Shown: piece by piece, positions 6,978 through 24,178 of the stretch | Numbering within the stretch: the first letter of the stretch is position 1 | How the letters are laid out: each line of letters opens with the position of its first letter | Source of the DNA: a virus | Taxonomy: Duplodnaviria; Caudoviricetes | Reading direction: 5' to 3' (one strand) | Virus record (IMG/VR): IMGVR_UViG_2892966740_000006 | Span: 22,938 to 86,937 of that record | Length of the DNA: 64,000 nucleotides | Position numbers and translations under genes: made by a program | Notes under the pieces: model-generated | The model's database searches: none | Told to the model about the DNA's origin: nothing | Seen by the model: only the letters and a program-made list of their open reading frames with translations

Positions 6978-7433
6978 CTAAAAAAGCTGACCTTGGGGGA
7001 CGTTATCAGGCAGCAGCTCGTCGGCCTTGCTCAAAATCTCTTCGATCCGGCGGTCACACAGTTTGAACTTTGGCACCAGTATATTATTGACGGTGGCATT
7101 ATGTCCCAGCTCCCGGCAGTGTCTGTCATAGTCTGCCCGGATCTCTGCATCACGTAGCGCCCGCAACGCGGCGGCGCATTTCGGTACGTATAACCGCGTG
7201 TTCCCGTAGTGTTTGGTCAGTGTTCGGGCTGCATCCACTCCCACCACCTCAGCCAGCGCCGAAAAATACTGGCCTTCCTGCCGGGCGGTTTTAGGAATGG
7301 GGAAATGGGTGCCGCCCAACAGGTCGACCAGCTTCATGGTCATGGGCAGGCTGATCAGCCGCACCAGTTCACGGGCGTTTTCCGGCAGCAGGTGCTGGGC
7401 ACGCAGAATCGCGTCCTCTCTTACTTTTCCCAT
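6978..7433 (-). CDS. mor: Mor/C-family transcription activator
   Basis: LGGTHFPIPK...LYVPKC...RDAEI...LCDRRIEEIL. Confidence 0.85.
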   Translation of the reverse strand: MGKVREDAILRAQHLLPENARELVRLISLPMTMKLVDLLGGTHFPIPKTARQEGQYFSALAEVVGVDAARTLTKHYGNTRLYVPKCAAALRALRDAEIRADYDRHCRELGHNATVNNILVPKFKLCDRRIEEILSKADELLPDNVPQGQLF

Positions 7434-7871: not shown

Positions 7872-7963
7872 CTCAATGCACGCGTGACCGGCCATGCCGA
7901 GCTTTATCAGAGGACGGCACCCCAGTAAGTGGATCGGGGCTGGCCGGTCACGGCTGCATTGAG
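7872..7963 (-). ncRNA. Conserved three-way-junction structured RNA, copy 1
   Basis: Long closing stem and two hairpins; 22-nt identity with 23581-23602. Confidence 0.7.
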
Positions 7964-8010
7964 GGTTAAAACACGTTGCGGAGCCTGTAACGCAGGCTCG
8001 ACACCGGGTT

Positions 8011-8421
8011 CTAAGTGGTACTACTTCGTCGCCAGATGAAATCCAATTCGCTAGGGAGTACCCATAAGTGCCGCATGTTTGCCACATTCACGACATCGCC
8101 GATTCGCGGGTATACCTCAATAGCATCGTTGCTGCCGTAGCCGACTCCATCCTTGATGTCCTGCAGCTCCTCCCAACTAATGCCATCGATCCAATGGCCA
8201 TCGTTTCCCAGACAAGTACGGCACACAGACAGGCGCACAATGTCGTTCGGCTCGGCATAAAGCTGCACCATGAAGTCCTTGCTCCAGTAGACCGCGAAGG
8301 GGAAATTCCTCCCCTTGATTTCAGGCCACCGATCACGCGGGGCGGGTGTCAGTACGGCCGGTAGCGTAGCTACTAGCTCACGGTTTGCTTTTTGCCGTGC
8401 TCGTCGTTGTTCTCGGTTCAT
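8011..8421 (-). CDS. Conserved phage hypothetical protein
   Basis: DGISWEELQDIK...AIEVYP...VVNVANMRHLW. Confidence 0.8.
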   Translation of the reverse strand: MNREQRRARQKANRELVATLPAVLTPAPRDRWPEIKGRNFPFAVYWSKDFMVQLYAEPNDIVRLSVCRTCLGNDGHWIDGISWEELQDIKDGVGYGSNDAIEVYPRIGDVVNVANMRHLWVLPSELDFIWRRSSTT

Positions 8422-9387: not shown

Positions 9388-9402
9388 TGCTGTCCTTTGG
9401 CT

Positions 9403-9457
9403 GCTCATCAGTACCGGACCACCACGCCCGGCAGACCACCCTTGCGGGCGGTTTCGC
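9403..9457 (-). ncRNA. Hammerhead ribozyme (type II topology)
   Basis: GC GAAA C-stemIII-GUC-stemI-CUGAUGA GC, with the full catalytic core. Confidence 0.88.
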
Positions 9458-9461
9458 TGGG

Positions 9462-9736
9462 TTAAGCGATGGCGTCTTTCAGTGCCTTGGATGGAGCAAA
9501 AACGACCTTGCGTTTGGCTTAAGCACTTGAATGGTTTCGCCGGTTTTCGGGTTGCGGCCGGATCGAGCCGGAACATCCTTGACCTTGAACTTTCCGGTGC
9601 TGGCCAGCACGATCTCGCCGCCCTTGGCCAGTTCTTGATGGATTTCTTTTTCCAGTGCATCGACAACGCGCAGAACGTCGGCTTTGGACAGGCCAGATTT
9701 TTCGGCCGTGGTGGTGATCAGTTCTTGTTTAGTCAT
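9462..9736 (-). CDS. HU-family DNA-binding protein (split at GCTTAAGC)
   Basis: MTKQELI...GKFKV...ARSGRNPKTGETI. Confidence 0.9.
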
Positions 9737-22795: not shown

Positions 22796-22999
22796 ATCGA
22801 ACTCCAAAAAAAATGAGGCCGCTCGGGCCTCGTTATTCCTTATCCTGGTATCGCTGACCGCACTGGTCTGAGCAGAACTCGTCAAAGTGATGCCGCACCC
22901 TATGACGCCCGGTGATCGGGTCACGGTCCTGCTGTACGACTTCGTGGATGACGCGATCCTCTATCGGCTTTCCGCAGTGCGGGCAGCGTGGGAGTGTGT

Positions 23000-23402: not shown

Positions 23403-23540
23403 TTACGGCCGGCGGACTACGGTTTGCCCGGCATATAACTTCCAGTCGCCCTCCCCGTTCACGGTGAAAGCGGTGTCCATCGGAATGCGCCGGGCATCAC
23501 GCTTGGCAGCGGCCAAATGCTCTATGGTTCCGTGTTCCAT
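23403..23540 (-). CDS. Small hypothetical protein directly downstream of structured RNA copy 2
   Basis: RBS AAGGAG; MEHGTIEHL... Confidence 0.55.
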   Translation of the reverse strand: MEHGTIEHLAAAKRDARRIPMDTAFTVNGEGDWKLYAGQTVVRRP

Positions 23541-23551
23541 GCCCTCTCCTT

Positions 23552-23644
23552 CCGCCGCCAGTGTTGAGCGCCCTCTACCGGCTTTATCAGAGGACGGCAC
23601 CCAAGCGAGTTGATCGGGGTGAAGGCGCTCAGGACTGGCGGCGG
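23552..23644 (-). ncRNA. Conserved three-way-junction structured RNA, copy 2
   Basis: CCGCCGCCAGT..TGAGCGCC closing stem; same core as 7872-7963. Confidence 0.7.
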
Positions 23645-23697
23645 GGCAAAGAAAAAGCCCGCGGGTGGCGGGCTTGTCATACTTCAATAACGGGTGA

Positions 23698-24178
23698 TCA
23701 CATCACCAGCACGCTGAAGCGCGATTGCAGGCCGATTGGGGAGAACGGGATGTCGTCATCAAGATCGTCCATCTTCTTCGGCGCTGGATCTGGCTGACGT
23801 CGAGGCGGCGCAGCCGGGGCGCTGTGCTGCTCACCTGCCCCATCACGCCCACCCAACATTTGCATACGGTCGCCGCGAATCTCCGTGCTGTAACGGTCCT
23901 GGCCGGTTTCTTTGTCCTGCCATTTGCGCGTACGGATCGAACCTTCCACGTACACTTGCGAGCCTTTTTTCAGGTATTGGGCTGCAACTTCGGCTGTTTT
24001 GCCAAAGAACACGACACGGTGCCATTCGGTCAGCTCTTCACGCTGGCCGGTTTGCTTGTTGTTGTACGTGTCGGTGGTGGCCACGGACAGTGTGGCAATG
24101 GCGTCGCCTAAGCATGTAACGCGTTTCAGGATCGCGGCCAAGGTTGCCGACGAGGATCACTTTGTTGACTGATGCCAT
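23698..24178 (-). CDS. ssb: Single-stranded DNA-binding protein (frameshifted)
   Basis: [39 protein letters not shown]. Confidence 0.92.

Follow-up and report, generated by a model that had tools for sequence, protein, structure and literature searches.

Results

The stretch of DNA analysed here, called the window in the following, comprises 64,000 nucleotides of the IMG/VR record IMGVR_UViG_2892966740_000006 (positions 22,938 to 86,937). A siphovirus-type prophage operon on its minus strand shows the order Gp157, ssb, terminator, a 93 nt intergenic motif (23552..23644), a 45-aa ORF, and DUF551 and methyltransferase genes. The ssb gene (24178..23698, minus) is broken into two overlapping frames, a probable assembly indel error. 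Directly 5' of the motif, after ssb, lies an intrinsic-terminator-like hairpin with U tail (hairpin 23675-23655, whole element 23645..23675, minus), which has an 8-bp stem with 6 G-C pairs and the tail TTTCTTTGCC. On the other side, an 11 nt spacer carrying an SD (AAGGAGAGGGC, within 23403..23551, minus) leads to the 45-aa ORF (ATG at 23540, end at 23403, minus), for which no Pfam family was found. This agrees with the preliminary description, which had placed the element after the post-ssb terminator and ahead of the RBS of this ORF.

The minus strand of the motif folds with an MFE of -52.9 kcal/mol (z = -6.9), and none of 200 shuffles was as stable. The fold exhibits a long closing helix and a three-way junction bearing the hairpins A and B. 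At the foot of the closing helix, the 11 bp of P1 are formed by the 5' strand CCGCCGCCAGU (23634..23644, minus) and its partner ACUGGCGGCGG (23552..23562, minus), with pairs that covary across the family. A 2x2 internal loop (CC/AC) connects P1 to P2, whose 5' strand UGAGCGCCUUC (23621..23631, minus) includes the family-conserved GAGCG and whose 3' strand GAGGGCGCUCA (23565..23575, minus) is likewise placed by fold and covariation. P2 comprises 8 bp, or 11 bp with UUC/GAG, and closes the three-way junction. The stems proposed beforehand, CCGCCGCCAGU-CC-UGAGCGCC paired with GGCGCUCA-AC-ACUGGCGGCGG, were reproduced exactly in the minus-strand MFE. Hairpin A (23600..23618, minus) possesses a variable, covarying stem, which in the MFE of this copy reads CCCGA/UUGGG including a G.U and an A-U pair; its loop GAUCAAC (family consensus YYAAC) contains the conserved UCAAC. 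Hairpin B (UGCCG-UCCUCUGAUAAAGC-CGGUA, 23576..23599, minus) carries on its 5' side and loop the near-invariant 12-mer GCCGUCCUCUGA (23587..23598, minus). According to the MFE, the terminator U tail (UCUUU, 23645-23652) can additionally pair with the SD (AAGGA, 23541-23551) and lengthen the closing helix; in read-through transcripts the RBS of the 45-aa ORF would be partly hidden by this pairing, which is absent in other members.

BLAST of the motif against the window revealed one related place, 7885-7956, with a 39 nt core of 90% identity (E = 1.4e-7). It belongs to copy 1 of the motif (7872..7963, minus; 107.9 bits), located 19 nt before the start of gemA in the adjacent Mu-like prophage (GemA, PF06252, E = 7.9e-25). 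The architecture is the same as in the copy at 23552..23644, hereafter copy 2, at -53.7 kcal/mol (z = -7.8); the sequences of P1 and P2 differ between both copies and the pairing is preserved. Copy 2 obtained 86.4 bits with the covariance model R1, built from 9 distinct sequences (alignment A2), and 78.5 bits with the second model R2, but is itself contained in the training alignments; the BLAST similarity to copy 1 is evidence independent of these models. The claim that copy 2 repeats a structured RNA shared with copy 1 is upheld. At 7895-7900, copy 1 shows an extra T (AAAGCTCGGCA) in comparison to AAAGCCGGCA in L001, L006, L007 and L010, another probable indel error of the assembly.

In the host genome (80.6% complete, 6.7% contamination), a 21-mer common to both copies occurs five times with at most 3 mismatches, always on one strand of contig C3, and the reversed 21-mer as a control occurs nowhere in the whole genome. 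Model R1 recovers all five copies at 61–113 bits. Each is prophage-borne: three Mu-like copies at 373993, 2535618 and 2976458, a P2-like copy at 468065, and copy 2 in the siphovirus-type prophage at 2992138 (all contig C3). The three Mu-like prophages exhibit near-identical junctions of motif, gemA and an upstream element described below. A whole-genome scan for a target of the hairpin-B loop found none elsewhere, the plus-strand 11-mer TCAGAGGACGG (first 11 bases of the 12-mer) being confined to the five motif copies. In the window's Mu-like prophage, an HU-like gene has its C-terminus (~9480-9560, minus) out of frame compared to its relatives, which is again a probable assembly indel error.

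Including all members collected, the covariance-model alignment A6 holds 42 sense matches with 32 distinct sequences. With R1, the motif was found in 18 of the 68 genomes of the host's GTDB family (host genome included) and in 6 of its 10 genera. We take this family to be Chromobacteriaceae by way of Aquitalea, which NCBI places in Neisseriales, Chromobacteriaceae. Exact 17-mer scans matched 38 stretches in genome_contigs and 33 in viral_contigs; judged by the fold, true members were those in two genome records (Aquitalea aquatica and A. palustris) and seven viral contigs, and the remaining matches were dismissed as chance occurrences in coding sequence. A gapped-pattern scan of IMG/VR yielded 75 new loci, 14 of them true members according to R2.

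Outside the family, no true member was found in the collections searched. No covariance-model match was obtained under strict filters in a sample of 147 genomes from other families of the order; pattern and model applied to 391 genomes of other families gave three pattern matches, none recognised by the model. A metagenome scan with a 23-base gapped pattern, covering exact pattern occurrences, returned a single match that the model did not recognise as a member, and neither copy had a blastn match (distant mode) among 50,697 GenBank phage records. At the gathering threshold, Rfam reported for the window only Hammerhead_II at 9395-9459. Relaxing to E<=10 between 23450 and 23750, the motif itself was matched by long-hairpin miRNA models only (21.5 bits, threshold 74), other weak matches (best E = 0.052) falling on the terminator or RBS flanks; between 7820 and 8080 a single 17-bit match on the plus strand appeared. 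For nine diverse members scanned at E<=0.5, hammerheads alone were listed. The motif family is thus without any Rfam 15 match and is a previously uncatalogued, real folded RNA. Full-text searches of the literature gave no description of the motif; supplementary lists of candidate motifs may contain something similar.

Covariation places the structure of copy 2 beyond chance. Across the 32 distinct members, 91.4% of the cells form standard pairs and 21 of 30 pairs are changed on both sides (137 cells), in an alignment that was fitted to the model's own structure and favours that structure. None of 500 column shuffles reached any of the five measures, and sliding the 3' partners by 1–3 columns lowered pairing to 30–37% with 2–7 covarying pairs. 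In an unfitted MAFFT alignment of 24 members, double changes were observed in 16 of 21 predicted closing-helix pairs, and in a MAFFT alignment of nine sequences they affect 11 of 30 pairs. The closing helix measures 18–23 bp, about two turns, in 32 of 34 contexts and is extended into the flanks by MFE in the other two; its sequence is wholly different between lineages and its energy ranges from -41 to -62 kcal/mol across members. The 2x2 internal loop, present in copy 2 and in the gemA copies of Aquitalea, is not conserved in the family, the P2-like members forming an uninterrupted 20-bp helix. The stem of hairpin A is found as CCCC/GGGG, CUCC/GGAG, GCCCA/UGGGC, CGCUCA/UGAGCG, CUCCA/UGGAG and AUCUGA/UCAGAU.

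Four sequence features are conserved. The 12-mer GCCGUCCUCUGA of hairpin B is identical in 29 of the 32 distinct members, each of the other three differing by one base; also constant are YYAAC in the hairpin-A loop, the C-A/U-G pairs topping P1 and, within P2, pairs resembling GAGCGGCC/GGCCGCUC. The junction strands are short (0–2 nt) and unconserved, with hairpins A and B 0–1 nt apart. A coding origin of the 12-mer was rejected due to loop indels of 1–2 nt and stem covariation, both incompatible with a reading frame. The hairpin B pair UGCCG/CGGUA (minus), that is TACCGGC on the plus strand, contains a G-C pair in 29 of the 32 distinct members and a G.U in copy 2 as the sole member. This lone G.U fits a true wobble as well as a base-call error.

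Folding energy alone cannot assign the strand since the plus strand of copy 2 is about as stable as the minus strand (-57.2, z = -6.3). The preliminary description had argued for the minus strand from a C.A mismatch on the plus strand that becomes G.U on the minus strand. This exchange is real in copy 2, but family-wide the wobbles do not decide the strand, with 13 G.U cells versus 9 A.C cells among the well-supported pairs. The minus strand, that is the gene strand, nevertheless holds on other grounds: all 42 matches are oriented like their flanking genes, and 12 GemA-type loci, as well as the window, carry type II hammerheads upstream of the motif on its own strand. In most contexts, an upstream sense ORF ends 13–75 nt before the motif, the nearest upstream frame picked by the script being doubtful or more distant in a few, and a start codon follows 11–23 nt downstream. 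By script, 27 of 32 distinct contexts yielded a sense ORF that is preceded by an SD and spans 40 aa or more, starting within ~25 nt in 26 cases and at 109 nt in L087, where by eye an AUG with weak SD lies 23 nt downstream. Three of the five contexts without such an ORF have, by eye, an AUG 12–23 nt downstream with SD weak or absent.

Three backbones, unrelated to each other, harbour the motif in an intercistronic position. In the Mu-like backbone the order is a DUF7694, zinc-finger ORF or HU-like gene, a U element (see below) or hammerhead, the motif, gemA, and a 151-aa ORF (6978-7433 in the window), which we take to be Mor. P2-like backbones show a replicase, presumably of the gpA type as judged by eye, followed by small ORFs and an ORF of 115–144 aa, after which come the motif, an HTH gene (108 aa) and, further on, integrase; the ORF immediately upstream of the motif is homologous in L081, L105, L155 and L168. 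For the siphovirus-type backbone, copy 2 is the only member found. Its helix is closest to that of L081, the P2-like copy of the same genome, which is likewise located after a terminator; this likeness and the shared position suggest that copy 2 was acquired by recombination. Within 8 kb, no sense-strand ORF family is common to all three backbones, the only shared neighbour being the ORF just upstream in P2-like contexts. The absence of a common phage ORF points towards a host factor or an RNA working alone. Two contexts have no adjacent RBS: in L142 a terminator follows the motif, and in L081 the terminator and motif are followed by a ~75 nt A+T-rich, promoter-like spacer. This spacer (L081 1430-1500, minus) contains a TTGACT...AATAAAT promoter-like stretch and precedes a low-G+C 186-aa ORF, which looks like a moron with its own promoter.

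Type II hammerheads are frequent neighbours in the Mu-like backbone. The one in the window (9395-9459, minus; 72.3 bits, threshold 37) lies just downstream of the HU-like gene, 1.4 kb upstream of copy 1. Of 13 GemA-type loci scanned, 10 carry one or sometimes two hammerheads in their early operons, 0.5–1.2 kb upstream of the motif and on its strand. The distance shrinks to 10 nt in L103 and 13 nt in L091, again with hammerhead and motif on one strand, and additional hammerheads occur ~0.5 kb upstream in L097 and L103. The Rfam scan found none in six P2-like loci and L142, so that the link belongs to the Mu-like backbone and not to the motif. Perreault 2011 (PMC3088659) proposes that such hammerheads divide the polycistronic RNA of phages into segments of gene length.

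A second conserved intergenic element, termed the U element, abuts the motif at 7964-8012 (minus) in the window and is also found upstream of it in L077, L079, L083, L092, L097–L099, L102, L106, L135, L144, L162 and L173. Starting from the stop codon of the preceding gene, which varies, it follows the consensus UAGAACCYGNYGUCGAGCC-[covarying hairpin]-GGCUCCGCAACGUGUUUUAACC, without a match in Rfam. Its tail UGUUUUAAC resembles, to our eye, boxA. In L103 and L091 the type II hammerhead fills exactly the slot of the U element.

Discussion

By class, we assign the motif to putative phage intercistronic RNA processing or regulatory structures, with an unusual conserved head. Several established classes were rejected. 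The argument against a gene-specific riboswitch, raised beforehand from the differing downstream gene, is strengthened by the family: the downstream genes are unrelated (GemA, a 108-aa HTH protein, a 66-aa excisionase-like protein, the 45-aa ORF), the junction is nearly empty, and the very long closing helix is rigid over 18–23 bp, whereas riboswitches are marked by a single associated gene function, a ligand pocket conserved within a junction and a short P1 that can switch. An intrinsic terminator was discarded due to the lack of a U tract on the 3' flanks on either strand, the scan finding only the separate post-ssb terminator. Hammerhead ribozymes are defined by a three-stem junction with an NUH cleavage site and a CUGANGA...GAAA core; the motif does not possess this core, its junction strands are limited to 0–2 nt, and RF02276 matches 9395-9459 and not the motif; scans of both copies at E<=10 gave no hammerhead match on it. 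Twister-sister, hatchet and pistol were rejected without an Rfam match at E<=10, for want of their cores, and with an internal loop that is unconserved and absent in P2-like members. The hatchet architecture outlined in PMC6561176 (P1 hairpin, 3-nt link, P2–P4, conserved L2) does not fit the motif. A MITE or Correia-type repeat was excluded by the five copies, all in prophages, and by arms that vary between lineages around a conserved centre.

Several known systems bear comparison with the motif. Phage RNase III hairpins such as the R sites of T7 early mRNA and lambda sib are intercistronic or post-terminator elements with an irregular ~20-bp helix and sometimes a small internal loop. The motif is similar in its intercistronic or post-terminator position in phage early operons and in its ~20-bp helix, and the location of copy 2 after a terminator may be compared with sib, which overlaps tI. 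In contrast to these simple hairpins, it exhibits a three-way junction and an invariant 12-mer, and its cleavage is putative. RNase III substrates are double-stranded over about two turns (~20 bp or more); with 18–23 bp of covarying pairs in 32 of 34 contexts, the closing helix is of this size. The Correia/NEMIS and REP/BIME/ERIC elements are transcribed intergenic palindromes that form long mRNA hairpins acting as RNase III substrates or mRNA stabilisers. Similar to these elements of Neisseria, a related group, and of enterobacteria, the motif is intergenic and palindromic; unlike them, it is not a high-copy chromosomal repeat with conserved terminal inverted repeats but occurs in five prophage copies with covarying arms and a conserved centre. 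With the type II hammerheads (RF02276; PMC3088659) it shares operons, strand, intercistronic slot and a three-stem junction, but differs in the missing CUGAUGA/GAAA core, the near-empty junction and the conservation in loops.

Overall, the motif looks like a signal for processing or controlling phage mRNA. An intercistronic signal for mRNA processing or stability is our preferred, though tentative, reading, to which we would grant somewhat less than an even chance. The analysis establishes structure, family, conservation, position and orientation of the motif; we infer its transcription, a processing step by RNase III or otherwise, and that there is a binding partner, whoever this may be. The motif would be co-transcribed in the sense strand with the polycistronic early operon mRNA of Chromobacteriaceae prophages and act in cis. 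It is predicted to fold by itself into a rigid, G+C-rich helix of about two turns (18–23 bp), topped by a tight three-way junction that would present two short hairpins, A with the conserved loop YYAAC and B with the conserved loop GCCGUCCUCUGA. The closing helix would offer double-stranded RNA of RNase III size and probably a strong block to 3' exonucleases. Through cleavage or protection at this helix, the cistrons on either side could become independent of each other in stability and translation, a role that would be paralleled by phage RNase III sites and the neighbouring hammerheads. RNase III (PF14622, 97.5 bits) is encoded in the host genome. Located just past a terminator, copy 2 and L081 would be present in read-through transcripts only, a position reminiscent of retroregulation by lambda sib.

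The RNase III idea leaves the invariant 12-mer unexplained, as this enzyme requires no conserved loops. Moreover, the 2x2 loop, absent from the P2-like copies with their perfect 20-bp helix, is no conserved cleavage-site feature. The conserved two-hairpin head may rather serve as a specific recognition determinant for a factor from the host and not from the phage; the restriction to one host family and the absence of a co-occurring phage protein make a host-encoded partner our leading guess. Alternatively, the head might fold back onto the conserved P2 segment in a tertiary interaction, which would be compatible with a catalytic role.

Other explanations were weighed against the processing or stability signal. 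An operator, whose conserved loops would bind a specific host or phage RNA-binding protein setting the expression of the downstream gene while the long helix only presents the site, would agree with a 12-mer that is invariant while the stems covary, with start codons 11–23 nt downstream in most contexts, and with several downstream genes being regulatory or DNA-binding (GemA, then presumed Mor; HTH or excisionase-like). However, no candidate protein co-occurring across the three backbones was found, and the L081 and L142 contexts without adjacent RBS count against any role tied to a downstream RBS; we regard an operator as rather unlikely. That the motif represents a new class of self-cleaving ribozyme, cutting phage polycistronic mRNA like the adjacent hammerheads, appears improbable to us. 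It would explain the intercistronic slots in hammerhead-rich Mu-like operons, the spacing of 10–13 nt from a hammerhead in two loci, the lack of an Rfam family match and the make-up of the motif, which at ~90 nt combines a multi-stem junction with over 12 invariant nucleotides. Yet the junction strands (0–2 nt) are unconserved, the sole internal loop is variable or absent, no covariation-supported pseudoknot was found, the conserved bases are located in hairpin loops, remote from any unpaired, conserved position at which cleavage could occur, and the P2-like and ssb contexts are without hammerheads. A similarly low weight is given to the broader proposal of a new small catalytic or factor-recruiting RNA class that cuts Chromobacteriaceae phage operon transcripts and is interchangeable with hammerheads, in which GCCGUCCUCUGA and the YYAAC loops docked on GAGCGGCC of the helix would form the active or recognition core.

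A cis-acting RNA that binds the elongating RNA polymerase or termination factors and in this way modifies downstream termination is still more doubtful. HK022 put and the lambdoid nut sites, which are cis-acting and host-dependent, share with the motif two adjacent small hairpins (here 0–1 nt apart) inside early phage transcripts. Copy 2 and L081 directly after terminators, and thus in read-through transcripts only, would suit such a role, as would contact to the host RNA polymerase as a cause of the host-family restriction. The tip of hairpin B in Aquitalea can form CU-GAUAA-AG, which in our estimation resembles boxB pentaloops, but this tip is unconserved (GAAAAC, GAAAC or GACC in other members); in contrast to put and nut, the hairpins are enclosed by a long helix, and the motif lies mid- or late operon, away from promoters. 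At the level of DNA, a folded single strand could serve phage replication as a signal for priming or single-strand initiation; host-restricted, orientation-dependent structured signals of this type exist on plasmids. Both strands fold equally well, wobble counts are neutral, and the P2-like motif is located ~0.7 kb downstream of the gene for the gpA-type rolling-circle replicase. But most copies reside in Mu-like prophages, which replicate by transposition, and the fixed orientation, the short distance to flanking stop and start codons and the hammerheads on the same strand speak against a DNA element, which we consider very improbable. Least credible is a co-transcribed antisense or anti-SD RNA in the manner of P1 C4, its loops pairing with the downstream RBS. 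P1/P7 C4 and P4 CI are likewise prophage RNAs with a closing stem and two loops just upstream of putative target genes; the motif lies just upstream of the RBS, and the pyrimidine-rich hairpin-B loop UCCUCU can pair with AGGA or GAGG. Measured against shuffled targets, however, duplexes of the loops with the 120 nt downstream show no gain in energy (n=34; loop A, mean z +0.2; loop B, mean z +1.0) and no excess complementarity; the SD is found at the foot of a 20-bp helix, remote from the loops, and the motif is matched by neither C4 nor isrK of Rfam. This class was rejected on these grounds.

Conclusion

With the motif, a well-supported structured RNA family joins the small set of elements for which a punctuating role in polycistronic phage mRNAs is known. 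The same head is carried on helices of differing sequence in three unrelated backbones within one host family, which suggests a portable RNA module tuned to a host factor. The structure is strongly supported, its distribution is narrow, and its closeness to hammerheads is intriguing. Should the head be catalytic itself, or attract a nuclease or some other factor, it would reveal how temperate phages adjust the relative expression of their early genes without extra promoters.
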